A stretch of DNA of 64,000 nt from Candidatus Latescibacterota bacterium (GTDB lineage: Bacteria; Latescibacterota; UBA2968; UBA8231). The DNA lies in assembly GCA_965223905.1 (NCBI GenBank), contig CBDCXV010000001.1, positions 224,001 through 288,000 on the forward strand. Direction: 5' to 3'. Below the pieces are notes generated by a model, which saw nothing but the letters and a program-made list of their open reading frames with translations, was not told where the DNA came from and did not search any database. How positions within the stretch are numbered: position 1 is the stretch's first letter; every line of letters begins with the position of its first letter. This document shows positions 1 through 14,050 of this stretch, piece by piece. The position numbers were made by a program, and so were the translations under genes.

Positions 1-358
1 GGCGCCGCAGGCCGAACAGCGCCACTCCGGCTGTGATCAGAAGGCCGACCGACAGGATGGTTGCCGAATCCCATTGCCGCCGCCTAGTGCCTCGCTCCGG
101 GACGGGATCAGACCCGCCTTCGACGCCAACGCGTTCCCACAAATGCTCTGGGACTTCCCGGGAAGGCACCTCTTCGGGGATCACGGCGCGGTCGACCACG
201 CCTTTGACGCGGCGAAACAGGTCGAGCAACTCCCGCGCCTGTGGTTCGAAGACAATCCGTTCTCCGATTTCGGCCAGCTCCTCGCTGTCGAGCTCACAAT
301 CGATGTATTTCGACAGCGGTTTTTCCAGTTTCTCCTTGCTCCACGGCAGTATCGACAT
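1..358 (-). CDS. Membrane-anchored anti-sigma factor (partial, runs off window start)
   Basis: Not in the ORF track. Manual translation from ATG at 358 (GAGAGG SD upstream): MSILPWSKEKLEKPLSKYIDCELDSEELAEIGERIVFEPQARELLDLFRRVKG...ATILSVGLLITAGVALFGLRR. LSxYIDxEL resembles anti-sigma N-termini, a TM helix follows, and it lies 29 bp downstream of the ECF sigma gene. Confidence 0.7.
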   Translation of the reverse strand, partial: MSILPWSKEKLEKPLSKYIDCELDSEELAEIGERIVFEPQARELLDLFRRVKGVVDRAVIPEEVPSREVPEHLWERVGVEGGSDPVPERGTRRRQWDSATILSVGLLITAGVALFGLRR

Positions 359-387
359 ACGTTGCCTCTCGATCCCGGTGGGCGCGC

Positions 388-1038
388 TCAGACGAGCCCG
401 TGCCGGCGCAGTTTCGGCAGCAGCCTGCGGCGCGCGCTGTAAATTCGGGAACTGACGGTTCCGATCGGGACCCCCAGCACGCGGGCAATCTCTTCGTACG
501 ACAGTTCTTCCATGCTGTTGAGCATCAGGGCTTCGCGAAGTCCCTCGGGCAGTTCGTCCACCAACCTGAGCACCACGCGCCGGGTTTCGGCAGAAATACA
601 CTCCGCTTCCGGATTGGCGGAGAATGCTCGAGGATCCGGGGGGTTGAACAAATCGTCGTTTCCGTGGTGCAATCCCAGCCGGTACCAGTTGCTGCGCGAG
701 CGGTCGCGGCGACGATTGAGGCTGAGGCGCAGGACGATGCGCAGAATCCAGGTTTTCAGCGAGGAATTGCCGCGAAAGCTGACCAGCGCCGCGTGAATCT
801 TCACGAATGCGTCCTGAACGACTTCCTCGGCGTCTTCAGGATCCAGCAGCACCCGGTAGGCCAACCCGTACGCCAGGGAGTGAAATTCCCTGACAAGTTC
901 GGCGAAGGCCGAGCCGTCTCCGGCCACTATGCGGCCAATGCGCTCCTCTTCGCCCGCGCCGACTTCGGGTCTCGCGTTTTCGACGAGCTTCAACTCTGCT
1001 CTTCTGCTGGGCGAAGATCTGTCTGCAGGTGACCCCAT
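388..1038 (-). CDS. ECF-family RNA polymerase sigma-70 factor
   Basis: Region 2 (DAEEVVQDAFVKI...FRGNSSLKTWILRI) and region 4 (LSYEEIARVLGVPIGTVSSRIYSAR). Start placed at ATG 1038; the track extends it to 1107. Confidence 0.92.
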   Translation of the reverse strand: MGSPADRSSPSRRAELKLVENARPEVGAGEEERIGRIVAGDGSAFAELVREFHSLAYGLAYRVLLDPEDAEEVVQDAFVKIHAALVSFRGNSSLKTWILRIVLRLSLNRRRDRSRSNWYRLGLHHGNDDLFNPPDPRAFSANPEAECISAETRRVVLRLVDELPEGLREALMLNSMEELSYEEIARVLGVPIGTVSSRIYSARRRLLPKLRRHGLV

Positions 1039-1124
1039 GATAGATACCCCAATCGACACCGATGCCTGTATGCCTGTTCGGCGAAAGCGAGCCCCGACGA
1101 CAGGCATATTGACATAGCTATTTG

Positions 1125-1137
1125 TAAAATAAGAAGA
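1125..1137 (+). promoter_or_regulatory. Putative -10 element (TAAAAT), possibly giving a leaderless transcript
   Basis: TAAAAT at 1125-1130 in an AT-rich patch, 6 nt before ATG 1137; no clear SD. Confidence 0.4.
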
Positions 1138-4100
1138 TGGATCTTCTCATCGGGCGTTGTCAATTGCTCGCTAAGGCAACCATTGTTTCCCTGTTTGCCG
1201 GTTGCGGGGCAGTATCGGCGGTAATGCCGGACGAGGGTCTGGAAGCGAGGCTGAAGGACCGAATCGAGCGGCTGGCGGCCATGGGCTCGAGGGTTACCGG
1301 ATATCCCGGCGCCTCCGCAGCCCCGAGATACCTGACGGACTACCTGAAAAACCTGGGTGTGCCCGAAATCCACCAGCGGCGGTTTCACACTCCCGTCCCC
1401 CTCGACCATGGGGCCGTCCTGCGCCTCGCAGTGGGACCGGATACGAGCGCGTACGAGCTCCTCCACATGTTGCCCAACCTGGTACGCACTTCCACCGTCC
1501 CCTTTCCCGGAATCACCGGTCTCCTGTTCTACGCCGGAAGCGGTGAACCTTTCGAGATGGAGGGTTCCCGAATCAAGGGAGCCGTCGCCGTCTTCGAATA
1601 CGACTGCGGCCGTCGCTGGGTTCGCGCCTTCGACCTCGGCGCGGAAGCCGTCATCTTCCTGGCGCCCTCCGACCCTGGAGGCAGCCATCGTTGGGAAAGC
1701 TCGCAGAAGTATCTGACGACGCCGGCCGACTTGCCGCGATTCTACGCCCCGGCACCCGCGAGCATGGCACTGCGGGCCGTGCTGTCCGACACCTCGCGGC
1801 AGGTGCCCGGACACCGTGCGGTCATCTCCGGAAGCATGGTCTGGCACAACGTGACCGGCCAAACCGTCGTCGCCGTGATTCCGGGCACTGACCCCACCCT
1901 TGCCCACGAGGCCGTAGTTGTCGGCTCGTACTACGACGCCATCTCCGCAGTGCCGGCCATGGCTCCGGGGGCCGATCAGGCGAGCGGTGTGGCTGCCTGG
2001 ATGGAGCTGGCTGCCGCTCTGGCAGCCAGCCCGCCCCGGCGCACCGCCGTTCTCGTGGCGACGGCAGGGCACTTTCAAGCGCTGGCAGGAATGCGCGATT
2101 TCATCGCTTTCCTGCGCTCCTTCGACACGGCGGGGAAAGGAAGCGTCGAGAGTCCCCAAGCTCCCTCACTGGATCAGCCGTTGAGAGCCCTTCTCTCCGA
2201 TCTGGAGATCGAATGCTACATCGGCCTCGACCTTAGTTCCCGCAGCCGGCAGCTGGCACTCTTACAGGGCGGCCCACCGTACCGAGTGCGCCGAATCCCA
2301 CCTTCGATTTTCGACCCGATCACCTCGTTTACCGAGACGTACGAGGAGCGCCACCTTCGGGGTGAGATGATTCTCGGCGGGGCGTTGAAGCCCCTGCGCC
2401 GGCGCCGGCTCATCGGTGCCCTGCCGGAGCGGATTCCGGTCTCCGGGTCGGTGGCTGCGCTGTCCGGTATGCTGGGGGTGACCCTGGTTTCGGCAGGGGA
2501 CGAACGCTCCCGTTTCGATTCACCGGGCGATCTCCCCGGGGGGTTGGAGTACGCCGACCTCGCGGCACAGACCCGCTTCGTCGTGGCCCTGATCCAACAC
2601 CTTATCGACGCAGATATCGACATGTCCCCCGAGGGCGGGAGCGACTCCTTCGGCAGGCTTGACGGGCGCGTTGTGAGTTGGGGTCCACACAGTTACCAGC
2701 CGGACGAACCGGTCGCTGGAGCTCTCGTTCGCGTGCGCACTTTCGGCAAGGCGACCGTGGGGGTGCGCGCGGATCCGCTGGCGATGACCGGCGACGACGG
2801 GCGCTTCACGGTGACCGGTCTCGAGGCCCGGACGCTCTACCTTAAACCGGCGCATCTCGAGGCCTACGTGGTCGATCCAGCGTCAGGCAAGGTAGTCGCC
2901 GCTCTCGATCGCGGTCCGCTCGGAATCGGCAAATACCCCGCCGAAGTCATCATGGACGATCTCGAGAAGGAGTGCACCCTGGTGACTTTCCCTTGCGCCG
3001 GGGTGACCCTTTTCGACCTCGTGGACCCCCGCCGGCTGGCGGTTCTCGACCAGGTCCGGATCCTGGAGTCTGGAAAAGAGGCGGAACCCACGAGCTTCGG
3101 CTACTGCCTCCCACCCACAGCCGCTCAGGTCGAGCGCAACGCCTACCACCACCTCATCGGACCCGACACCGAAAGCACAGCGGTGCTGTTCGTTCCTCCC
3201 GGCACGGACTTCAAGGTGATTCTTGCCGGTGGCCGCTTCGGCCTCGGCCGCCGCGGCCTGCTTCTCAACAGCCGCCCGAATGCCGCCACCGGTTCCGGGT
3301 ATCCGGCGAGCGCTTCCCGAGTGCCGGCGACGGCATTGCACCTCGCCCGCGACACCCACCGGCTCAACCGCGATCGCCTGCAGCAACTGGAATCGCACGG
3401 AATCAGCAGCTCGCTTCTGACGGACTTGAACGGCGCCGCGGAAGCAGCTCTGAGAAAAGCAAGCGCCGCCTGCGAAGAGGGCCGCAACAATGCCTGCACG
3501 GGAGGGAGCCGCCGCGCCTGGGCGCTCGCATCGCAGGCATACGGGGCGACGCAGAGTCTGTCTGCCGGCGCCGTCCAGGGTGTCGTGTTCGTTTTGTTTC
3601 TGCTGATTCCCTTCGCGGTCCTGGCGGAACGCCTGTTGCTGGCGAGCCGTGGAATCCGCGGTCAGGTCGTCGGCTCGGTCGCCGTTTTCGCAGTCGCCTT
3701 CACCGCCCTGCGATCTTCTCACCCTTCCTTTAAACTGTCGCTCTACCCCTCGCTGATCCTGCTCGGATTCGCCATCCTGTCCCTGAGCCTGACGGTGATC
3801 GGTCTGGGGATAGCGCGCCTCAACGCGCAGCTGCGGGCGGCCGAATCCTCCGCATCCATCCTCCACCGCGCCGGCACCGCGAGGGGGGGGGTTCTCTGGC
3901 GTGCCTTCGCGCTGGGTGTCGCACAGATGCGCCGACGTCCCTGGAGAACGGCGCTCACCGCGGCGACACTCGTGCTGTTGACCTGCACCCTGACCTCGTT
4001 CACATCGGTACGGGCCGGTCATCGTTCCAACCGCACCCCGATCTCCGGCCACCTCCCGGACCGTGCCAGCCTCCCTGCCCTTGTAGTGCGCATGCCCGAG

Positions 4101-5570
4101 TTCGCCGCCATCGAGGCCCCCGTGATCGACCACCTCGCGTTGCGTTTTGCCAGTGGTACGATCGTGCCGCGCAGGTGGTACCTGAAGCCGGTGCAAGTGC
4201 GGAGCCGTACCGGCAACAGCCGTATCGAGGCGGTTGCAGGGGTTTCGGCTTTCGAAAACCGCGTCAACCCGATCGACGACGCCCTGCTTGCAGGGCGATG
4301 GATGGACCCCGGTGAACTCGCCTGTGTGCTGCCGGCGAACCAAGCGGACCTTCTCGGCGTGCAAGACGACCACCTCGGTACCGCCACCGTCCGCGTCCTC
4401 GGCACTGACTACCCGGTCGTGGGCATTATCGACGCCGAGCGCTTCGACCAGCTACGCGATATCTCCGGCGACCCGTTGACACCCCTCGACTTCGAAGTCC
4501 ACCAGCCGGACGAGAAACGGGTCGGCATCGATCGCGATGGCCTGCAGCCGGCCTTCGTCCACTTGTCCAGCCGACAGATACTCTTCCTCTCCAACGACAC
4601 GGTGGCGCGCTGGGGGGAGTGGTCCCGCGTCGCCTCGATCGCCGTCCTCTTCGAGAATCCGGGGACCGCCCGCCGGGAGATCGACGAAATGGCCCTGACC
4701 TCCGAGCTCAACCTCTTCGCCCGCCTGGACGACGGTACCTTTCGCATCAACACCGTCGGAGTACGCGTCTTCAGCGGCCAGCGCGGTGTTTGGATCCCGC
4801 TGTTGATCGCTGCACTGATCGCCTTCAACACCATGCTGGGAAGCGTGTACGAGCGCCTTTCCGAGATCGGGACTCTGAACGCCATCGGACTCGCCCCAGG
4901 TCACGTGGCCGGGCTCTTCCTCGCCGAAGCCGGCGCCTTCTGCCTGCTGAGCGCGGTGCTGGGATCTCTCCTCGGATTCGGAATCGCCCAGGCCGGCACC
5001 TTCGACCTGCTTCCCGGGCTGACAGTCAACTATTCGTCTCTGTCGGCTGTCGCCACCGTGGCCGCGGTGATGGCCGTGGTCCTCGCCTCGGCGGCCTACC
5101 CTGCGCGCATGGCCTCGCGGATCTGCACGCCGGGGATCGAGCGCAGCTGGACCTTGCCGCCACCGCGGGGAGACCTCCTGACGCTGTCGCTGCCCTTCTC
5201 CCTGAACCGGAAAGAGGCCCACGGCTTCGCGCGGTTCCTGCGCGAATACCTCGGGGCTTTCGACGATCAATCGATCGGGGCGGTGTTCTACGCCGAAGCC
5301 ATCGCGGAGAAGTCAGCGGGAGAAATCGACGCCCGGGTCTGGTTGGCTCCTTTCGACCAGGGAGTTTCCCAGACGGTTCGGCTGATTCCCATGCCCGATG
5401 TCGACCAGCGGTTCTTCACGTTCAGAGCAGCCATACAGCGGCTTTCCGGAAACGAGTCCACTTGGTGGCGGGCAAACCGGATTTTCGTCGACTCGCTTCG
5501 CAAGCAGTTTCTCATCTGGCGCAACCTCGCAGCTGAGCACCGGGCCGCCTACCTGGAGACAGGGCCATGA
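1137..5570 (+). CDS. Large exported/membrane fusion: PA domain + M28-like (degenerate) peptidase fold + beta-sandwich + MacB/FtsX-like permease
   Basis: N-terminal signal (possible lipobox LFAGC); PA-like LFYAGSG...IKGAVAV; M28-like VVVGSYYDA...APGADQASGVAAWMELA; carboxypeptidase-regulatory-like GRVV...EPVAGALV...TGDDGRFTV; TM cluster; MacB/FtsX signatures RRRPWRTALT and VYERLSEIGTLNAIGLAPGHVAGLFLAE. Confidence 0.8.
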   Translation: MDLLIGRCQLLAKATIVSLFAGCGAVSAVMPDEGLEARLKDRIERLAAMGSRVTGYPGASAAPRYLTDYLKNLGVPEIHQRRFHTPVPLDHGAVLRLAVGPDTSAYELLHMLPNLVRTSTVPFPGITGLLFYAGSGEPFEMEGSRIKGAVAVFEYDCGRRWVRAFDLGAEAVIFLAPSDPGGSHRWESSQKYLTTPADLPRFYAPAPASMALRAVLSDTSRQVPGHRAVISGSMVWHNVTGQTVVAVIPGTDPTLAHEAVVVGSYYDAISAVPAMAPGADQASGVAAWMELAAALAASPPRRTAVLVATAGHFQALAGMRDFIAFLRSFDTAGKGSVESPQAPSLDQPLRALLSDLEIECYIGLDLSSRSRQLALLQGGPPYRVRRIPPSIFDPITSFTETYEERHLRGEMILGGALKPLRRRRLIGALPERIPVSGSVAALSGMLGVTLVSAGDERSRFDSPGDLPGGLEYADLAAQTRFVVALIQHLIDADIDMSPEGGSDSFGRLDGRVVSWGPHSYQPDEPVAGALVRVRTFGKATVGVRADPLAMTGDDGRFTVTGLEARTLYLKPAHLEAYVVDPASGKVVAALDRGPLGIGKYPAEVIMDDLEKECTLVTFPCAGVTLFDLVDPRRLAVLDQVRILESGKEAEPTSFGYCLPPTAAQVERNAYHHLIGPDTESTAVLFVPPGTDFKVILAGGRFGLGRRGLLLNSRPNAATGSGYPASASRVPATALHLARDTHRLNRDRLQQLESHGISSSLLTDLNGAAEAALRKASAACEEGRNNACTGGSRRAWALASQAYGATQSLSAGAVQGVVFVLFLLIPFAVLAERLLLASRGIRGQVVGSVAVFAVAFTALRSSHPSFKLSLYPSLILLGFAILSLSLTVIGLGIARLNAQLRAAESSASILHRAGTARGGVLWRAFALGVAQMRRRPWRTALTAATLVLLTCTLTSFTSVRAGHRSNRTPISGHLPDRASLPALVVRMPEFAAIEAPVIDHLALRFASGTIVPRRWYLKPVQVRSRTGNSRIEAVAGVSAFENRVNPIDDALLAGRWMDPGELACVLPANQADLLGVQDDHLGTATVRVLGTDYPVVGIIDAERFDQLRDISGDPLTPLDFEVHQPDEKRVGIDRDGLQPAFVHLSSRQILFLSNDTVARWGEWSRVASIAVLFENPGTARREIDEMALTSELNLFARLDDGTFRINTVGVRVFSGQRGVWIPLLIAALIAFNTMLGSVYERLSEIGTLNAIGLAPGHVAGLFLAEAGAFCLLSAVLGSLLGFGIAQAGTFDLLPGLTVNYSSLSAVATVAAVMAVVLASAAYPARMASRICTPGIERSWTLPPPRGDLLTLSLPFSLNRKEAHGFARFLREYLGAFDDQSIGAVFYAEAIAEKSAGEIDARVWLAPFDQGVSQTVRLIPMPDVDQRFFTFRAAIQRLSGNESTWWRANRIFVDSLRKQFLIWRNLAAEHRAAYLETGP

Positions 5571-7548
5571 GCACCACGAACCCTGCCGCCAACCGCGGGG
5601 AGGTGCAGGCAGAGTATCGCGATCTGCTGGCCACTCCACGGGAGTTCGCGGACGGCTTCACGGGGCGCACGGTACTTGGGGCATTCTTCATTGGCTTCCT
5701 GATGATGCCCGGAGCGATTTACATGGGCCTGATCGCTGGTTCGAGTCTCGGGCCGGCGGCGGAGTGGGTTACCATAATCCTGTTCGCCGAGGTGGCGCGG
5801 CGCTCATTCGCCCCTCTCGGCCGCCAGGAGATCTACGTCCTGTACTACATCGCCGGCGGACTGACGCACGTCATCGGCGGTGTCATGCTGGCCGGGGGAC
5901 CCTTCGCCAGCCTGATCTGGCATCAGTACCTCGTCCAGTCCCAGGTCGGGCAGGCACTCGTCATAGCCGAGCAGATCCCGGCCTGGGTTTCCCCTCCGGC
6001 CGATTCCCCCGCCATTGTCGAACGTGATTTCCTGCACCGGGACTGGCTCCTCCCCGCGATGCTCCTGGTAGCCGGGCAGGTGCTGGCACGCGCCGAGTGG
6101 TTCGGCCTCGGCTACCTGCTCTTCCGCGTCACCTCGGACGCCGAGCGCATGCCGTTCCCACTGGCGGCGGTTGCGGCGCAGGGGGCCACCGCCCTGGCCG
6201 AAAGCGATCAGGCGCATGCGAGCTGGCGCTGGCGCCTGTTCTGTATCGGCATGGGAATAGGGATCCTGTTTGGAACGGTGTTCATCGGGCTGCCGGCCCT
6301 GTCCGGTCTCGTCGCCGCGCGTCCCCTCGAGCTCCTGCCCATACCGTGGATCGACTTCACCCGCGACTTCGAGAACCAGCTCCCCGCGGCCACCCTAGGA
6401 ATCGGCACCGACCTCGGGCTTGTCCTCGCCGGATTCGTCCTGCCCTTCTGGGTTGTCGCCGGGTCGTTCGCCGCAGTTGCTTTTCAGACGGCTGCCAACC
6501 CGATCCTGCAGCAGGCGGGTCTGCTCGAGCGCTGGCAACCCGGGATGGATGCGATTGCGACACACTTCTCCAACGACCTAGACATCTGGCTGAGTGTATA
6601 TATCGGCACCGGCGCCGCGGTGGCCGCCGCTGGAATCGCCCAGGCGGCAACCTCCTTCCGCCGCAATGGCAAAGGAAAGGGTGCCCCCCCGCCACCAAGC
6701 CGAGGGGACTTTCCCCTGTGGGCTGCGGCGATGGCATACCTGCTGGCAGCTGCCGGGTACGTCCTCCTGTGCCGGCAGCTGCTTGCCGATGATCGCTTTC
6801 CCCTGCTATTCCTGCTCGCCTTTGCGTTCCTGCTGACCCCCCTGATCTCCTACGTCAATGCCCGCATGATCGGCCTGACCGGACAGACCGCCGGGATCCC
6901 CCTGGTGCGCGAGGGGGCCTTCCTGCTCAGCGGCTATCGCGGTGTCGACATCTGGTTCGCGCCCATTCCCTTCAGCGATCACGGACGACGCGCCCAGCTG
7001 TTCCGCGAGGTGGAACTGACGGGGACCCGTTTCACCAGCATCCTCAAGGCGGAACTGCTGATTCTGCCTGTGGCGCTAGGGTGCGGCTTTCTTTTCTGGG
7101 CTCTGATCTGGAAACTGCAGCCGATTCCGTCGCTGGCCTTTCCGTTTGCCCAGAAGTACTGGCACCTGTTCGCCATGCGGCAGTTTTTGTGGTTCTCCTT
7201 TACGACCGAGGGTGGTCTCGATCTGCCGGAGGTCGTGCATTCCGGCTGGGTCGCAGCGCCTTCTCTCTCACCGGCGTCGCGCTCGTCGCCGCCAGCGTGT
7301 GGGGATTCCCGCTGGCCCTGGTTTACGGATTCATCCGCGGTCTGCAGTCAATGCCCCATCTGCTCATACCCGAAATGCTGGGGGCATGCCTCGGCCGCTA
7401 TTACTTCGAGCGCCGCTTCGGACGCAACCGCTGGCGCCGCTGGGCGCCCGTATTGATGGCCGGCTTCGCTTGCGGCAACGGCCTGATCGGCATGGCCGCC
7501 GTCGCCATCGTCCTGATCGCCCGCTCCGTCGCTCAGCTTCCTTACTGA
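5567..7548 (+). CDS. OPT-like polytopic membrane protein (putative peptide transporter), frameshifted near 7256
   Basis: ATGA overlap with the upstream gene; many TM helices; ERMPFPLAAV motif. The hydrophobic C-terminus (AFSLTGVALVAA...RSVAQLPY, stop 7548) continues in another frame (track ORF 7081..7548). Confidence 0.7.
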
Positions 7549-7555
7549 GAACTCG

Positions 7556-9481
7556 ATGCCGGTGACAACCCCGCGTTCCATCGCTTTGGCTGTCGCCGCC
7601 ATTTTCCTAGGCTCCTGGTCGATTCAGCGAGTTGATCTCGTTTACGCGGGACCCTCCCTGACTTACGGCCCGCTTCCCGCACTGCCGATTGCCCTATTGC
7701 TGCTCCTGGTCCTCCTGCGCCGCCTAGGGGCTGGCTGGCTTCAGTTCAAAGAGGGCGAACTGCTAGGGTGTTACCTGATGACTGCTGTCGGCCTTCCGTT
7801 GGCGGCCGGGGGGTACACCCACTACCTGCTTCCCGGGCTGGTCACCGGTTTTTTCCAGTTCAGCGACCCTGCCGGGCGGTACTACCCCTTTCTCAAACTG
7901 ATTCCCGACTGGATGGTGCCTGGCCGCGAAGGCAGCCTCGCCGTAGACGGGTTCTTCCAGGGTCGAGTCGACGTGCCTTGGACAGCCTGGGCGCTGCCCC
8001 TGATGGCATGGGCAGCGCTCGCCATCGCCTTCTGTGCCGCCATGTGGGGGTGCATGACGCTGCTGCGCAAGCGCTGGCTTCAGGAGGAACGCCTGCGCCT
8101 CCCACTCGCCGAACTGCCCCTGACTCTCGCGCTCAACGGTTGGGAACTGCTGCGCAGCAAGGCATTCGCGGTCGGCGCCGCGGTGCCGGTCCTGATCTAC
8201 GGGCTGAACGGACTCCACCACTACCACGTTTTCCCGGCGGAAATCCCGCTGTCCTTCAACTTCGCGGAAGTGCTGACAGAACAGCCGTGGGCAGCCATTG
8301 CTCCTTTCACCTCGCGGTTCGAATTCACCGTCTCCCCATTCCTGGTCGGGATCGCCTACCTGCTGTCAGTCGAAGTCGCCTTCAGCACCTGGTTCTTTTT
8401 CCTTCTGACCCGGGGGCAACTCCTCGTCGCCGAACTATTAGGGCGAAGTGGCGATCAGGGCGTCTTCATCGGGCTCGGGGGACAGTGGCGGGAATGGCCA
8501 AATTTCACACCCCACCTGCATGCACAGGCCCGCGGCGGCCTGCTCTGTCTGGCAGTGCTGAGCCTTTGGGCTGCGCGCAAGGCACTTGCCGATGCCTGGC
8601 GGCTAGCGCTGTGCAACCGGGGCCATGAGCGCCTGGGCTTTCTTTGCTTGACGGCTGGCAGTGCCGGCCTCCTCGCCTGGGGGCACGCTGCCGGCCTCTC
8701 GCTCCCCCTAGGGGCAATCTTCGTCCTCATGCTGCTGCTGACGGCCATCGGGATGGCCCGCCTGCGCCTGGACGCCGGTCTACCCGTGGTCAGCGTTTAC
8801 TTCCTAGTTCCCAACCTTCTCTTCTTTGCCCGGGGAACCGGCCCGGGTGTTTTCAGCCCTTCCGAATACGTCGCCCTTGCGTTTCTCAACCTCCTGAGCT
8901 ATTCCGGAATCGCCGCGGTGACTATGCTGCACGTCGAAGGCTGGAAGATGTCCGGGGCGCTGCGCACCGGCGCCACTCATATCGGGGCAGCCGTCGGGGT
9001 GGGCTTGCTCGCGGGTCTGGCCTGTGGTTTCTGGTCGATGCTTGAACTGGTGTACGATCCGGGGATCTTTACCCTCGATCGCCACGGCGGTGCCCGTTCG
9101 GCAGCCCGCCTGGGCCGCTACTACCACTACCTGTACTCCGAGGCGGGAACCCGCCCGGCTGGTCCCGACCTCATCAGAATGGGCGCCGTGGCAGCGGGAT
9201 TCGCCGTCACTGCAGCTCTCTCATTTCTGCGCACCCTGTTCACTCAACTGCCGTTTCACCCGGCCGGATTCGTCTACGGAACCGGTATCGGCTACCTGAT
9301 CTGGGGGTCCGCGCTGATCGGCTGGACCGTCAAGGTTCTCGTAGTCCGTTACGGAGGAGCTGCGCAGTATCGCCGCCTGCGCCCCTTCTTCATGGGGCTG
9401 ATCGTGGGAGACCTTTTGATGCGTCTGATGTGGGCCGCGGTTTCCCTGCTCGGCGAGCCCGGAGGCGGGTACCGCATTTGA
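7556..9481 (+). CDS. OPT-like polytopic membrane protein (DUF6785/DUF6784-like)
   Basis: 641 aa, many TM helices; W...EERLRLPLAELP motif; C-terminal LPFHPAGF...WTVKVLVVRYGG...YRRLRPFFMGLIVGD; 7 bp after the previous stop. Confidence 0.75.
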   Translation: MPVTTPRSIALAVAAIFLGSWSIQRVDLVYAGPSLTYGPLPALPIALLLLLVLLRRLGAGWLQFKEGELLGCYLMTAVGLPLAAGGYTHYLLPGLVTGFFQFSDPAGRYYPFLKLIPDWMVPGREGSLAVDGFFQGRVDVPWTAWALPLMAWAALAIAFCAAMWGCMTLLRKRWLQEERLRLPLAELPLTLALNGWELLRSKAFAVGAAVPVLIYGLNGLHHYHVFPAEIPLSFNFAEVLTEQPWAAIAPFTSRFEFTVSPFLVGIAYLLSVEVAFSTWFFFLLTRGQLLVAELLGRSGDQGVFIGLGGQWREWPNFTPHLHAQARGGLLCLAVLSLWAARKALADAWRLALCNRGHERLGFLCLTAGSAGLLAWGHAAGLSLPLGAIFVLMLLLTAIGMARLRLDAGLPVVSVYFLVPNLLFFARGTGPGVFSPSEYVALAFLNLLSYSGIAAVTMLHVEGWKMSGALRTGATHIGAAVGVGLLAGLACGFWSMLELVYDPGIFTLDRHGGARSAARLGRYYHYLYSEAGTRPAGPDLIRMGAVAAGFAVTAALSFLRTLFTQLPFHPAGFVYGTGIGYLIWGSALIGWTVKVLVVRYGGAAQYRRLRPFFMGLIVGDLLMRLMWAAVSLLGEPGGGYRI

Positions 9482-9532
9482 CAACCGAAGTCGTTCAATC
9501 GTAACATTTTGCCAGTTTTGCTGCTCCAAAGA

Positions 9533-9572
9533 GCGGTGTATATTCCCCATCTGCGGTGTATATTCCCCATCT
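9533..9572. repeat. Perfect 20-bp tandem duplication GCGGTGTATATTCCCCATCT x2
   Basis: Units at 9533-9552 and 9553-9572, read directly. Confidence 0.95.
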
Positions 9573-9573
9573 A

Positions 9574-10788
9574 ATGAACTCGCCGGTACACAGAGCTTTC
9601 ACAGAAATACTGCGGAGGCTTCCAAAATTTGCCCCGTCCGTTTCTGCGGGGATCGTCCTAGCCATGTTCGCCTTGGGGCTGTCCCTGCCCGATGCAGGGG
9701 CCGAGACCGGCGAACCCGTAGCCGCAGACAGCCTTCGCAAATACCGGTTTCTCGCCAAAACCGCTCGCGAAAAGAAGCAGACTGAAGACGCGCTGCGATA
9801 CTACGGGCAGGTGATCCACTACAAGCCCGACGATCTCAAAGCCCATTATTTCAGCGGCAGCCTGCTCGCAAACAAGGGAGACACGGCGGCAGCGAAACGG
9901 CACTTGCTCATCTGTGTCGCCCTCGACTCCCTGCACGTCAACAGCAACGTGCTGTTGACGCAACTCTACCTGCGCCAGGAAGATCCCGATTCGGCTTGGG
10001 TGTTCCTGGAGCCCGTTTTCGACATCAAGCCCGCAGTCTCGAAGTACCACCGGTTCAGGCGCCAAATCGCGGATCTCCATCGCATCCAGGGAAACCACAA
10101 AGCCGCTATTTCTCACTACGAAGCGCTGGCAGCCAACAGCGAAACCGACGCGCGTCAGATCTTCGAGCTGCTCTCCCAGCTGCACGAAGCCAATGGCGAC
10201 ACGGAACAGGCTCTTGCCTTGAGTTCGCGCGCCTTGTCGTCCCCGGCCTCCGAAACGAGCCCGTCCGCGATTGAAATACTCAGCCGCGTGCTGGAGCTGC
10301 AGGCCAGTAGCGGTGATCGTTCAGGTGCCTACGAAACGCTCAGACAGTTGGTGCGCCTCGACTCCCTGAGCAGGTATTCCTACTTCGACCGCATGGCTGC
10401 GATCGCTACCGATGCCGGCGATCTTTCGCAGCAGGTGGAAGGGCTCGAGGGTATGGTCGAAGCCCAACCACATGACCTGGGCCCATTGGCTACACTGGTC
10501 GAGCTCCACCTGAAGGGCAACGATCTCAACGCTGCTTCGACCTGGCTGCGTAGGGGCCTCAAGGTCGACAAAAAGGACGGCCACCTGCTGCTGCTTCAGG
10601 GTGAGCTGTTGATACTGCAAGGAGACGAAGATGCGGCAATTGCCGCTTTCGAACGGTCGCGACAGGATCCCGAGTGGGAAAAAGTCGCACAACAGCGCAT
10701 CTGGCAGCTGCGACCCCCGGAAACTGAAGAAGAGAAGCTGAAACGGTCATTCTTCGGAGCAAGTGAAGAAGACCAAACCGGTGGCTGA
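9574..10788 (+). CDS. Exported tetratricopeptide-repeat protein
   Basis: Hydrophobic signal (GIVLAMFALGLSLPDAGA) followed by repeated TPR-like helices; start uncertain (9556/9574). Confidence 0.8.
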   Translation: MNSPVHRAFTEILRRLPKFAPSVSAGIVLAMFALGLSLPDAGAETGEPVAADSLRKYRFLAKTAREKKQTEDALRYYGQVIHYKPDDLKAHYFSGSLLANKGDTAAAKRHLLICVALDSLHVNSNVLLTQLYLRQEDPDSAWVFLEPVFDIKPAVSKYHRFRRQIADLHRIQGNHKAAISHYEALAANSETDARQIFELLSQLHEANGDTEQALALSSRALSSPASETSPSAIEILSRVLELQASSGDRSGAYETLRQLVRLDSLSRYSYFDRMAAIATDAGDLSQQVEGLEGMVEAQPHDLGPLATLVELHLKGNDLNAASTWLRRGLKVDKKDGHLLLLQGELLILQGDEDAAIAAFERSRQDPEWEKVAQQRIWQLRPPETEEEKLKRSFFGASEEDQTGG

Positions 10789-10834
10789 ACAGTCGCCAAA
10801 CGGGCCAACGCTGGCCTCCAGCTGAGGAGAGATT

Positions 10835-11458
10835 ATGTGGGAATTGTTTCAGGATGGTGGATGGGCGATGTATCCACTGGTAGTACTGCTGGTGCTCGGA
10901 ATCGCCATTGCCATCGAAAGACTGATCAACCTGAGCCGAGCAGGTATCGACGCAAACGCGTTTTCCCAGAACCTTGAAGAGGCCCTGAGGTCTGGCGGGC
11001 CCGACGAGGCCGCACGGATCTGTTCGGAAACGCGGGGGCCCGTCGCCTCGGTCATCCACGCCGGTTTGTTGCGAATGCACCGCGGCATCGATCACGTGGA
11101 AAAGGCGATCGACAATGCCGGAGCAGTGGAGATGGCTTTCCTCGAACGAGGTATGGTCTGGCTTTCCACGGTCGCCAACCTCGCTCCCATGATCGGCTTC
11201 CTCGGGACAGTGAGTGGGATGATCACCGCTTTCCAAGCGATCGAAAGGGCCGGCGACGTTGAACCGTCCATGGTTGCCGGAGGAATTTCGGAGGCGCTTA
11301 TCACTACGGCATCCGGTCTTATCGTCGGTATCATCATTCAATTCCTTCACAACTTTTTCGCATCCAGGATCGACCGTATCATCGCCGACATGCAAGAGCA
11401 TACTGCCGGTTTCGTCGACCTGCTGGCGGAAACGGGTCAGGCTGACGCCGCGCAATAA
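10835..11458 (+). CDS. exbB: MotA/TolQ/ExbB proton channel protein
   Basis: LSTVANLAPMIGFLGTVSGMITAF...AGGISEALITTASGL; GAGGAG SD. Confidence 0.93.
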   Translation: MWELFQDGGWAMYPLVVLLVLGIAIAIERLINLSRAGIDANAFSQNLEEALRSGGPDEAARICSETRGPVASVIHAGLLRMHRGIDHVEKAIDNAGAVEMAFLERGMVWLSTVANLAPMIGFLGTVSGMITAFQAIERAGDVEPSMVAGGISEALITTASGLIVGIIIQFLHNFFASRIDRIIADMQEHTAGFVDLLAETGQADAAQ

Positions 11459-11498
11459 AAGCGCCGCAGAGCCAATCCACTGACAGCGCCGGAATCGG

Positions 11499-11912
11499 AT
11501 GAACTGGAAACGAGGGCACAGAGTCCCGCCGGAGATACCTACCGCCTCGATGGCGGATATCGCCTTTCTTCTGATTGTCTTCTTCCTTGTGACGACGACG
11601 ATGAATCAGGACAAGGGCCTGTCTTTGCACCTGCCGCCGTTTGGTGAAAGCAAAGAGATCAAGCAGAAGAACATCTGCAACGTCTGGATCAACGAACGGG
11701 ACGAAATCGCCTTCTTCGAAAACGAAAATCTGACCTTGGTTTCTTTCGGTGATCTCCGAGGCCAGATACAGAGCCGACTCGCGGCCAACGACAAACTTAT
11801 CATTTCGCTGAAGGCGGAACGCGGGGCCACGTATCGGATGTTTGTCGACGTACTCGACGAACTCAAACTGGCGGGCGCGACCCGCATCTCGATCGCGGAG
11901 CCTGAGCAGTGA
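11499..11912 (+). CDS. exbD: Biopolymer transporter ExbD/TolR
   Basis: EIPTASMADIAFLLIVFFLVTT with the conserved TM Asp. Confidence 0.92.
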   Translation: MNWKRGHRVPPEIPTASMADIAFLLIVFFLVTTTMNQDKGLSLHLPPFGESKEIKQKNICNVWINERDEIAFFENENLTLVSFGDLRGQIQSRLAANDKLIISLKAERGATYRMFVDVLDELKLAGATRISIAEPEQ

Positions 11913-12328
11913 AGTTCAACCGCAAAGCAACGGTCGCCAGTGTGATCCCGACAGCTTCCATGGCGGACATCTCTTTTCTGCTGCTGGTTTTTTTCATGGT
12001 GTCGACCGTGTTTGTCCGCTACCGCGGCATTCCGGTTGAATTGCCCGACGCAAAAAGTGTCGAAAAACTCGAGATGAGGAGGCATGTGACCAGCGTCTGG
12101 GTCAGCAAAACCGGTTTGGTCAATATTGACGACCAAACGGTTCTGCTCGAACAGGTGGGGCAGCTCATCTACTCCAAACTGAGCGCGAATCCTCGGCTGA
12201 TAATCTCCATCAAGGGAGATGGCGAAGCCGAATTCGGTGTCATTTCCGATGTCCTGCAGGAGCTGCGCAAAGTTGAGGCATTGCGCGTCAATTTCGCCAC
12301 CGACCGGGAGAAGCAGCCACAGCCATGA
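11909..12328 (+). CDS. exbD: Biopolymer transporter ExbD/TolR (second paralog)
   Basis: IPTASMADISFLLLVFFMVST; GTGA overlap. Confidence 0.92.
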   Translation: MKFNRKATVASVIPTASMADISFLLLVFFMVSTVFVRYRGIPVELPDAKSVEKLEMRRHVTSVWVSKTGLVNIDDQTVLLEQVGQLIYSKLSANPRLIISIKGDGEAEFGVISDVLQELRKVEALRVNFATDREKQPQP

Positions 12329-13011
12329 CCAGCGCCGGCATCCCGCAGCGGCCTTGGAAAATGCCGCGACGAAAAGCGCCTGAAGCGGATCTTCGGCAGA
12401 CCTACCGCAAGGCCTTCTGGCTCTCGGTTGCCGCCTCCACCGCAGCTCATGCCCTGCTATTCATCATTTTTCCATCGTTCGAAGTCGAAGCCTTCGAAAA
12501 GCCGCAAGCCCCGGTCATTATCGAGCTGGAGCAGATACCGGAAACCCGCCAGGAACGGCGTCCGCCGCCTCCGCCACGACCCGTCGTCCCGATTCCCACC
12601 GACAGCGAAGACATTCCTGACGACGTTACCATCGAAACTACTGAACTTGACCTTTTCGACGATTTGGCACCCCCGCCTGAATTTGACGAGCTCCCCAGCA
12701 TAGAGGTCGAAGAAGAGGAAGAGGAGATTGTCGACCTCTGGAAGGTCGAGAAGAAACCGGTGCGGAAGAAGCAGGTTCGACCCGAATATCCGGTGATCGC
12801 CCGAAAAGCAGGTATCGAGGGCTCGGTAACGGTCACCGTACTGATCGGCAAGGACGGCAAGGTCGAGGCGATCGGTCAGATAGTCGGCAACGAAATCTTC
12901 CACGAAGCCGCCAAGGCGGCCGCCCTGAAAACGGAGTTTACACCCGCGATCCAGAACGACAAGCCGGTCAAAGTGTGGGTTAGTCTCCCGTTCAAATTCC
13001 ACCTCAATTGA
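12325..13011 (+). CDS. tonB: Energy transducer TonB
   Basis: TM helix with SxxxH (STAAH), Pro-rich linker, C-terminal PEYPVIARKAGIEGSV...FTPAIQNDKPVKVWVSLPFKF. Confidence 0.92.
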   Translation: MTSAGIPQRPWKMPRRKAPEADLRQTYRKAFWLSVAASTAAHALLFIIFPSFEVEAFEKPQAPVIIELEQIPETRQERRPPPPPRPVVPIPTDSEDIPDDVTIETTELDLFDDLAPPPEFDELPSIEVEEEEEEIVDLWKVEKKPVRKKQVRPEYPVIARKAGIEGSVTVTVLIGKDGKVEAIGQIVGNEIFHEAAKAAALKTEFTPAIQNDKPVKVWVSLPFKFHLN

Positions 13012-13198
13012 ACCTTTGGCTGCGCTGATCCACGCGATCACGGTTGCCATTTAGGATATTTACATCTCGGAGGTGCTCTTGATGCATCGATTTTGGAAGC
13101 CACCGAGATCCCTCCAAGCATCTCCCCGCCGGTAGGTACACACATCCCCGAATAACGCCACCTCGTGCACAACAACAAAGGTGGTCGGGAGGTCGCAC

Positions 13199-13654
13199 AT
13201 GCGTTGCCCGTTTTGCGATCATCAGGACGACCGCGTGGTCGACTCGAGGTCGTGCCGCGATGGCCAAGCCATCCGCAGACGCCGGGAGTGCATCAACTGC
13301 AATCAGCGGTTCACCACCTACGAATACATCGAACACGCGCCGCTGACCATCATCAAGCGTGACGGCAGTCGGGAGCCTTTCGACCGAGGCAAACTCCTCG
13401 AAAAGATTCGCCTCGCCTGCTACAAGACACCCGTCTCCAGCGATCAGATCGAAGAACTCGTCGACCAGATCGAAAGCGAGTTGGGCAACCTCACCGAAAA
13501 GGAAGTGCCGAGCATTCAGGTTGGTGAGCTGGTCATGGATGCGTTGCGCAGGTTGAACGAAGTCGCCTATGTCCGATTTGCGTCGGTATATCGACAATTC
13601 AGGGACAAGAGCGATTTCGTCCGCGAGTTGGAGCAGCTCTCGCCGGCCCCTTGA
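13199..13654 (+). CDS. nrdR: Transcriptional repressor NrdR
   Basis: MRCPFC...DSR...IRRRRECINCNQRFTTYE zinc ribbon, ATP cone, VAYVRFASVYRQF; GGAGG SD. Confidence 0.97.
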   Translation: MRCPFCDHQDDRVVDSRSCRDGQAIRRRRECINCNQRFTTYEYIEHAPLTIIKRDGSREPFDRGKLLEKIRLACYKTPVSSDQIEELVDQIESELGNLTEKEVPSIQVGELVMDALRRLNEVAYVRFASVYRQFRDKSDFVRELEQLSPAP

Positions 13655-13820
13655 GAACCTTGGCGGCGCTCCACCCATTTTGCGAGGCGCCGCACTAAAC
13701 GCCTGCTCGCCTGCAAGGGCAAATTTCCGCCTCCGTCAGGCATCCACCACCGTAGAAAATCGACGTTTTTGAGCCTCCTCAGCCCCGCCGGGAGATCGAT
13801 CCCGGTCTTTTTGAAATTCC

Positions 13821-13850
13821 TTGACACGCTCGAATCAAGGGCTGTATATT
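13821..13850 (+). promoter_or_regulatory. Sigma-70 promoter of nrdJ
   Basis: TTGACA (13821-13826), 18-bp spacer, TATATT (13845-13850). Confidence 0.7.
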
Positions 13851-13860
13851 CGAGACGTTT

Positions 13861-13907
13861 CTACAAGATCTTGTGTTCCGCTTGGTAGACAGCAGGAGAT
13901 AATGTGG
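13861..13907. promoter_or_regulatory. Tandem NrdR boxes
   Basis: CTACAAGATCTTGTGT (13861-13876, palindromic core ACAAGATCTTGT) and degenerate GCAGGAGATAATGTGG (13892-13907), 31-bp periodicity, compared with consensus acaCwAtATaTwGtgt. Confidence 0.75.
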
Positions 13908-14050
13908 TTCCCAGCGGAACTGATGTCCTCTTGTATTCTCCCCGCATATCCTCCTGTATATACTGATTTTGGGGCCTTTTGGGCTGGCGCTGAGCTTGGC
14001 CCAAAGGCGGAGCCCGTATTTTGCGCGCGATGCGCACAAGAGAGGGAAAA

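Follow-up and report, generated by a model that had tools for sequence, protein, structure and literature searches.

The 64,000-nucleotide stretch analyzed here (G000:C1:224001-288000; hereafter the window, with G000 denoting the host genome and C1 the contig that holds the window) carries three genes, G1 (1137..5570), G2 (5567..7548) and G3 (7556..9481), which form a real, conserved module for which we found no published description. These genes and all of their domains given below lie on the + strand. From its open reading frame, Pfam matches, structural models and Foldseek searches, G1 encodes a protein of 1,477 aa in which a pseudo-aminopeptidase head is fused to a MacB/FtsX half-permease. 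G2 is a putative, distant OPT-superfamily permease that is spread over two frames in the window and comes to 660 aa when a missing G is counted, and G3 is a 641-aa protein with the Pfam domains DUF6785 and DUF6784. The reading that we tentatively favor, with slightly less than an even chance of being right, is that this triad represents one out of seven paralogous modules within a conserved type VII (MacB/FtsX-type) ATP-binding cassette (ABC) envelope system whose motor is encoded in trans. The first 618 residues of G1 are 81% identical to those of its closest named relative, which comes from a Candidatus Latescibacterota metagenome-assembled genome.

The C-terminal half of G1 matched the Pfam FtsX domain (PF02687) at residues 1222-1329 with 47.5 bits against a cut-off of 25.5. 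This match lies within a MacB/FtsX module at residues ~935-1330 (3939..5126) that consists of transmembrane helix 1 (TM1), a periplasmic domain, TM2, an ER..EIG motif (residues 1239-1244), TM3 and TM4. The predicted model of residues 790-1477, with a predicted local distance difference test score (pLDDT) of 84.7, showed three extra helices followed by TM1, the periplasmic domain and TM2 to TM4, and Foldseek matched it to MacB (5gko, E 4.1e-12), LolC/E of the LolCDE complex, YtrF, HrtB and YbbP, as well as to the isolated periplasmic domain of MacB (3ftj, TMt 0.59). In alignments, the G1 segment SVYERLSEIGTLNAIG coincided with the ER..EIG segments of MacB and YtrF, and the motif showed complete or nearly complete conservation across 54 G1 sequences (E450, R451, E454 and I455 of A2). 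In MacB, as described in the available part of PMC5985334, this segment forms the major coupling helix, which is located between TM2 and TM3 and contacts the ATPase. With its FtsX domain score, its four-helix unit that includes a periplasmic domain and its coupling helix, G1 has three of the four features that define type VII permeases; for the fourth, a bound cognate ATPase, there is a candidate encoded in trans. The base of G1 thus corresponds to one MacB/LolCE-like half-permease of four helices, complete with periplasmic domain and conserved coupling-helix motif. The preliminary description of this DNA had placed a MacB/FtsX permease at the C-terminus of G1, and both the Pfam score and the fold matches bear this out. 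On the curated NCBIfam models, G1 scored only 12 bits on LolC. Behind the permease, the model showed a C-terminal alpha/beta cytoplasmic domain of ~130 residues (~1347-1474; 5175..5558) that is conserved in the family and has no Pfam match.

The N-terminus of G1 looks like a signal or lipoprotein-type signal sequence, and it is followed by a PA + M28-like head at residues ~24-493 (1206..2615), an all-beta, sandwich-like region at residues ~505-723 (2649..3305), and a helical stalk with three extra membrane helices at residues ~732-902 (3330..3842). Residues 24-800 were modeled with 54 family sequences as input, which gave a pLDDT of 92.1 and a predicted template modeling score of 0.92; most blocks of the all-beta region had a pLDDT >90. 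The Pfam M28 match was above its cut-off (27.1 bits versus 21.3), spanning 72 of the 193 positions, and the closest structures to the head model in the PDB were PA-domain M28 aminopeptidases (2ek8 with E 4.4e-22, PaAP and BSAP), then the transferrin receptor and GCPII; 8acg, 6hc6, 3kas and 3fed share the same PA + M28 fold. The PA and M28-like domains, the beta-sandwich and the extra membrane helices of the preliminary description were thus all recovered. G1 has the M28 fold without the M28 catalytic residues: in an alignment with 2ek8 that covered its H, D and EE motifs, which we take to supply metal ligands and the catalytic Glu of that enzyme, the corresponding G1 residues are Y, Q and HF, within the remodeled motifs YYD, GADQ and GHF. 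Among 73 family members, 50 have Y and 16 have H at residue 265, Y266 is found in 70, D267 in all 73, Q281 in 58 (with D not among the six commonest residues listed at this position), H312 in 68 and F313 in 59. Judged from this alignment, the canonical two-metal site of the head is lost, with replacements that are family-wide, and the remodeled pocket is under selection, because the replacements are conserved across the 73 members. The head therefore shares its fold with the PA-domain M28 aminopeptidases, with the inactive transferrin receptor and with the active GCPII (PSMA), and it differs from the aminopeptidases both in these positions and in being fused to a membrane motor module.

G000 encodes seven G1 paralogs, at 30-32% identity to the G1 of the window, and four G2-type genes. 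Beside G1 there is a G2 and a DUF6785 gene at locus A (the window), a DUF6785 gene at locus B, a G2 at locus C, a G2 with a divergent DUF6785 gene at locus D, a G2 with genes for a ~300-aa Cys-rich protein and a PqqD-like protein at locus E, a gene for a UPF0182 protein at locus F and a DUF6785 gene at locus G, so that six of the seven loci adjoin a G2-type or DUF6785 gene. At locus G (L015:5055-12002, -; G000:C10:602054-609001), a 2,315-aa frame joins the C-terminal two thirds of G1 to the first ~110 DUF6785 positions and the G1 head is a separate frame of 453 aa, an arrangement that is either a true fusion or the result of more single-base assembly errors. We also surveyed the neighborhoods of 20 loci around G1 homologs from 19 genomes, as the preliminary description had proposed. 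Ten of these loci held both a G2-type and a DUF6785 gene, one a G2-type gene only, six a DUF6785 gene only and three neither, which leaves 17 of the 20 with at least one of the two. All orthologs of the window's G1 (44-82% identity; L016-L020, L022 and L023) retain the triad, in two gene orders, confirming that the linkage of G1, G2 and G3 is real and conserved across genera. One further arrangement, in L027 (G073:C1:2338000-2357900), is a tandem of DUF6785, G1, DUF6785 and G1. In a relative of the same genus (L009, OZ242214.1:5072461-5094314; also G079:C1:5082461) the G1 ortholog is split over many frames and contains internal stops, probably owing to assembly indels and not to decay; L009, the one locus that a search of genome contigs for G1 relatives returned, was left out of the counts.

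The preliminary description had also presented the system as a permease without an ATPase, on the ground that none was visible in the window. Within the window this stands, since there is no PF00005 match in C1:224001-288000 (the nearest lies at C1:321770), and no ABC ATPase was found within 14 kb of any of the seven G1 loci in G000; the ATPase nearest to any G1 paralog, 14.5 kb from locus G, adjoins its own double FtsX permease. An ATPase gene was likewise missing from 16 of the 20 surveyed G1 loci. For the system as a whole, however, the claim most likely falls, because a dedicated motor is most likely encoded elsewhere in the genome. In L029-L032 (families f7, f9 and f12), we found a gene string consisting of G1, G2, the ~300-aa protein, the PqqD-like protein, a 228-aa FtsX and a 245-255-aa ABC ATPase. 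A search of the whole genome for homologs of this FtsX and ATPase, in line with another suggestion of the preliminary description, returned an intact LolD/MacB-type ATPase gene beside the short FtsX (hereafter mini-FtsX): G000 has a single homolog of each (58% identity for the mini-FtsX and 76% for the ATPase), and the two are adjacent at C1:853469-854992, ~625 kb from the window triad. The ATPase carries Walker A, Q-loop, signature, Walker B and H-loop motifs, and its best NCBIfam matches are LolD, MacB and YbbA, all below the curated cut-offs. The mini-FtsX of G000 is 237 aa long, has only ~45-65 residues between TM1 and TM2 and carries the same ER..EIG motif as G1.

We compared the distribution of these genes among 121 genomes sampled from the phylum. 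Of these, 108 have G1, often in multiple copies, 101 have the mini-FtsX, always as a single match, and 102 have the ~300-aa protein. None of the three occurred in any of the 13 genomes of family f10, the only sampled family to lack these genes. No case of a mini-FtsX without G1 was seen among the 121, and the seven genomes with G1 and no mini-FtsX are all 60-89% complete. G1 and the mini-FtsX lie within 5 kb of each other on one contig in five genomes (G003, G005, G011, G016 and G035), each with one G1 match; in genomes with several G1 copies the mini-FtsX/ATPase pair is unlinked. These phyletic and cis patterns fit one shared motor. In G000, the genes for the ~300-aa and PqqD-like proteins sit at paralog locus E, where the former (L013:4990-6000, -; G000:C10:795700-796999 including the downstream frame) is single-copy and encodes a soluble, Cys-rich protein, with the PqqD-like gene next to it. 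The ~300-aa protein has no family match, and no precursor peptide or modifying enzyme was found beside this gene pair. A complex prediction of G1 residues 919-1477 with the mini-FtsX scored 0.25 and 0.30 against a mark of 0.32, was run with no controls and counts neither way.

As given in the window, G2 runs from 5567 to 7456 (+; 629 aa) and ends in a stretch unlike a membrane protein, and its true C-terminus is encoded in a second frame, 7081-7548. Three intact G000 paralogs align with the first frame until residue ~546-564 and with the second one starting at its residue ~66-77, with the homology changing frame near 7240-7260. In contigs from all three DNA-type public runs (X1, X3 and X7; three studies), position 7255 is followed by an additional G, each time at full depth; over 5500-9500, where these contigs were compared, no other insertion or deletion was listed. 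X1 matches the window almost exactly and, being a possible source of the assembly, does not count as an independent observation. Because the contigs of all three runs carry the extra G, G2 is most likely intact, with 660 aa and a stop codon at 7546-7548, which leaves 7 bp before G3 begins at 7556. A programmed frameshift was considered and rejected, since the public contigs simply hold one more base. The same assembly splits several other DUF6785 genes, which fits single-base indel errors. Of the tight coupling described earlier for the three genes, the ATGA overlap of G1 and G2 (5567-5570) therefore stands, the 7-bp gap holds once the extra G is counted, and G2 as a single frame in the window does not.

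G2 itself has no Pfam family, and its C-terminal frame reached only 15.5 bits on OPT (PF03169) against a cut-off of 25.8. A search of 1.84 billion representatives returned 813 cluster representatives related to G2 at E up to 0.001, and of ten G2 homologs tested, seven passed the OPT cut-off and three had no OPT match. G3 passed the cut-offs for DUF6785 and DUF6784 (PF20581 and PF20580) over its full length, with 300.3 and 87.5 bits, and had no Pfam OPT match. When a profile of 30 DUF6785 paralogs was aligned with 59 G2-family sequences by hhalign, the two families matched over 579 columns with 98.9% probability and E 1.8e-17. Because of this profile alignment and of the G2 homologs that pass the OPT cut-off, G2 and G3 are, at the level of sequence comparison, homologous to each other and both distant members of the OPT superfamily, with the OPT kinship being transitive. 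The earlier view of both polytopic proteins as OPT-like thus survives in the sense of distant superfamily membership and not by curated score. They resemble the OPT/Yellow-Stripe-like family through the G2 homologs and through the full-length homology of the G3 family to the G2 family, and they differ from it in that both fall short of the OPT cut-off themselves. Searched against PDB sequences, a profile of the G2 family produced matches at chance level only and no solved OPT structure, G3 produced no match at E up to 10, and NCBIfam had no match for G2, G3 or the ~300-aa protein.

No paper naming DUF6785 or DUF6784 was found in the literature library searched. In G000, DUF6785 is greatly expanded, with 58 matches in ~45 genes (for example C10:1856274-1858283 and C11:1747043-1748908), 42 of them near full length. 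A quick tree grouped the window G3 with eight other rows into a clade whose nine members all adjoin a G1 (Shimodaira-Hasegawa-like approximate likelihood ratio test 100), and most stand-alone DUF6785 paralogs fall in another clade. The paralogs, most of which stand without a G1, lie beside genes for CHU_C-type secreted, TPR, GH32-/GHL10-like and Gfo/Idh/MocA proteins. The near-identical DUF6785 genes at G000:C4:4089-6029 and C6:30524-32464 have the same neighbors and branch lengths of 0 and 0.0016, which suggests that contigs C4 and C6 are redundant in the assembly (contamination estimate 5.1%).

Comparison with described systems places the module near, and apart from, several of them. It resembles LolCDE and MacB in the four-helix FtsX/MacB unit of G1 with a periplasmic domain between TM1 and TM2, in the ER..EIG coupling-helix motif between TM2 and TM3 and in the presence of a LolD/MacB-type ATPase in G000, and its two unequal FtsX-type subunits recall LolC/LolE as covered in the available text of PMC5985334. 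It differs in the additional ~800-aa periplasmic region and three extra helices of G1, in a mini-FtsX with almost no periplasmic part, in an ATPase gene ~625 kb away in G000, in NCBIfam scores that are all far under the Lol and MacB cut-offs, and in its linkage to OPT-fold permeases, a feature absent from the described type VII systems. By curated scores, the system is not LolCDE, MacB or FtsEX. As an analogy, the closest published idea is YbbAP-TesA of E. coli, a type VII ABC system with a periplasmic hydrolase partner (PMC12646458, available part). Both combine a type VII base with a periplasmic hydrolase-fold module, and YbbP was one of the structures that Foldseek matched to the base of G1; however, TesA is an active, separate esterase, whereas the hydrolase-like domain of G1 is fused and without the canonical M28 metal ligands, and YbbP has two permease units per chain where G1 has one. 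Our literature search found no description of this gene combination, in agreement with the earlier impression that no characterised system has this architecture.

Under the reading that we favor, G1 and the single mini-FtsX would form an unequal pair, like LolC and LolE, on a dimer of the LolD/MacB-type ATPase, and this one motor would be common to all seven G1 paralogs, which would exchange on it. More speculatively, ATP-driven movement of the stalk and head might serve to capture or to release a peptide-like periplasmic ligand, which the OPT-fold permeases might then take over and carry across the inner membrane, amounting to uptake, and the ~300-aa Cys-rich and PqqD-like peptide-binding proteins of locus E might act on the cytoplasmic side. 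Capture and hand-off of a ligand to a heteromeric OPT-like channel, as put forward in the preliminary description, is likewise speculative. Weak hints of an uptake role come from the DUF6785 paralogs among glycoside hydrolase (GH)-like, Gfo/Idh/MocA and secreted-protein genes and from the TonB-ExbBD set that follows the triad in four family f1 loci. A bolder version, which we regard as doubtful, is a hybrid primary/secondary machine in which one ATP motor (mini-FtsX plus ATPase dimer) would be time-shared by up to seven pseudo-peptidase receptors, each mechanically gating or loading its own OPT-fold permease(s), such that ATP would control capture and the membrane potential would drive translocation.

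Several observations weigh against a shared motor that serves OPT-linked uptake modules. That G1 touches the mini-FtsX, its ATPase or the OPT-like proteins is a proposal, and the transport direction and substrate suggested above are speculative. The phyletic match is essentially one contrast, f10 versus the rest, among related genomes that are not independent, and the cis arrangement occurs in three families only (f7, f9 and f12), possibly one lineage. The G000 motor pair is flanked by glycosyltransferase/RmlD genes on one side and trp genes on the other, unlinked to any G1 locus. Most of the ~45 DUF6785 paralogs stand without G1, which implies no general need for it, and at locus F (L014:12012-14831; G000:C10:2125011-2127830) G1 is followed by the UPF0182 protein (959 bits) with no OPT-like gene. 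A PqqD-like peptide binder on the cytoplasmic side also speaks against uptake. UPF0182 proteins have been tied to FtsH regulation in Actinobacteria in the available part of a 2026 preprint (10.1101/2025.11.14.688347), and the type VII ABC systems covered in the available parts of PMC5985334 and PMC12646458 have neither inner-membrane import nor an OPT partner.

These points leave room for other explanations. In a version close to the preliminary description, G1 could be a motorless, passive periplasmic receptor or scaffold that gates or feeds two proton-driven OPT-like permeases, with the mini-FtsX/ATPase pair being a separate machine. OPT transporters are secondary carriers, and both the absence of an ABC ATPase from the window and from within 14 kb of all seven G1 loci in G000 and the 16 surveyed loci without one would suit such a module. 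However, the complete or nearly complete conservation of the cytoplasmic coupling motif in 54 G1 sequences and its alignment with the MacB and YtrF motifs are difficult to account for if G1 has no nucleotide-binding domain partner, and the cis linkage in f7, f9 and f12 and the matching phyletic pattern argue in the same direction, as does the single four-helix unit of G1, given that the known type VII permeases in the available text of PMC5985334 act in pairs; we therefore consider ATPase independence unlikely. About equally unlikely, and still a serious rival, is an export, extraction or assembly machine in which the ABC motor and G1 expel an envelope component or a peptide, perhaps recognized by the PqqD-like protein, and the OPT-fold proteins provide the export or flipping route. 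Its seriousness comes from the cytoplasmic PqqD-like binder in the core gene string and from the fact that the characterised type VII systems (MacAB, LolCDE, FtsEX and YbbAP-TesA) all act outward or in the periplasm, as far as the available parts of PMC12646458 and PMC5985334 go; the glycosyltransferase and RmlD genes that adjoin the G000 motor would fit as well. Against it, no precursor peptide or modifying enzyme was found in the gene strings examined, and seven diversified heads suit nutrient receptors better than a single export task. Members of the OPT family are, moreover, known as importers.

Two further explanations carry much less weight. That the mini-FtsX/ATPase pair is the phylum's FtsEX or Lol system, near G1 in some genomes by chance, is very unlikely. 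The ATPase does reach 203.5 bits on the FtsE and 225.2 on the LolD model, and no FtsX or FtsE equivalog scores above cut-off elsewhere in G000, but the cut-offs are 264.85 and 308, the mini-FtsX scores 28.6 against 255 for FtsX_Gneg and 55 against 362 for lolCE, and the pair thus falls outside both the FtsEX and the LolCDE equivalogs. In addition, the ATPase ranks only 8th of 21 FtsE matches in G000, the TM1-TM2 loop of the mini-FtsX is too short for the periplasmic domain of FtsX or LolCE, a separate pair of ~410-aa permeases with an ATPase exists at C10:907900-911004, and the same gene string with G1 recurs in three families (f7, f9 and f12). Least credible of all is a decaying locus in which G2 is a true pseudogene and the triad is no longer functional: the window does have G2 in two frames, but the frame-restoring G is present in all three DNA-type runs from three studies, the other split DUF6785 genes of the assembly fit indel errors, and both G2 frames retain clear homology to intact paralogs.

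Upstream of the triad and divergent from it lies a gene for an extracytoplasmic function (ECF)-type sigma factor (388..1107, -; Pfam Sigma70_r2 and Sigma70_r4_2), whose real start is probably further inside the frame; it also adjoins the triad in L016, L018, L019 and L020. Downstream, genes assigned by Pfam to a TPR protein, ExbB, two ExbD proteins and TonB (9556..13011, +) are co-directional with the triad. This TonB-ExbBD set is kept in L016, L018, L019 and L020 only, all of family f1, and is absent in L021-L023; L017, whose contig ends, counts neither way. With synteny confined to these four loci, TonB/ExbBD was dropped as a component and is treated as a neighbor only, its membership of the system being uncertain. 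Beyond the sigma factor and the TonB set, housekeeping genes flank the region. A promoter and terminator scan of 300-14000 gave counts at or below the shuffle expectation; one sigma-70-like site (9478-9507, +; 10 of 12 matches) sits between the stop codon of G3 and the start of the TPR gene, with a site count for the region no higher than in the shuffles. From the RNA run X19, three short contigs only were obtained (5754-5791, 7968-8219 and 8319-8474), too sparse a basis for calling the genes transcribed, and none of them spans the frameshift position.

The presence of G1 in most of the sampled genomes (108 of 121), frequently as more than one copy, makes a central role in the feeding or envelope building of these uncultured bacteria likely. 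If the reading that we favor is true, type VII ABC mechanotransmission would gain a new job, in which it works with secondary OPT-fold carriers via a fused, remodeled peptidase head, and the triad would provide the first functional handle on DUF6785/DUF6784, with ~45 copies in G000, and on the G2 family with its 813 cluster representatives.

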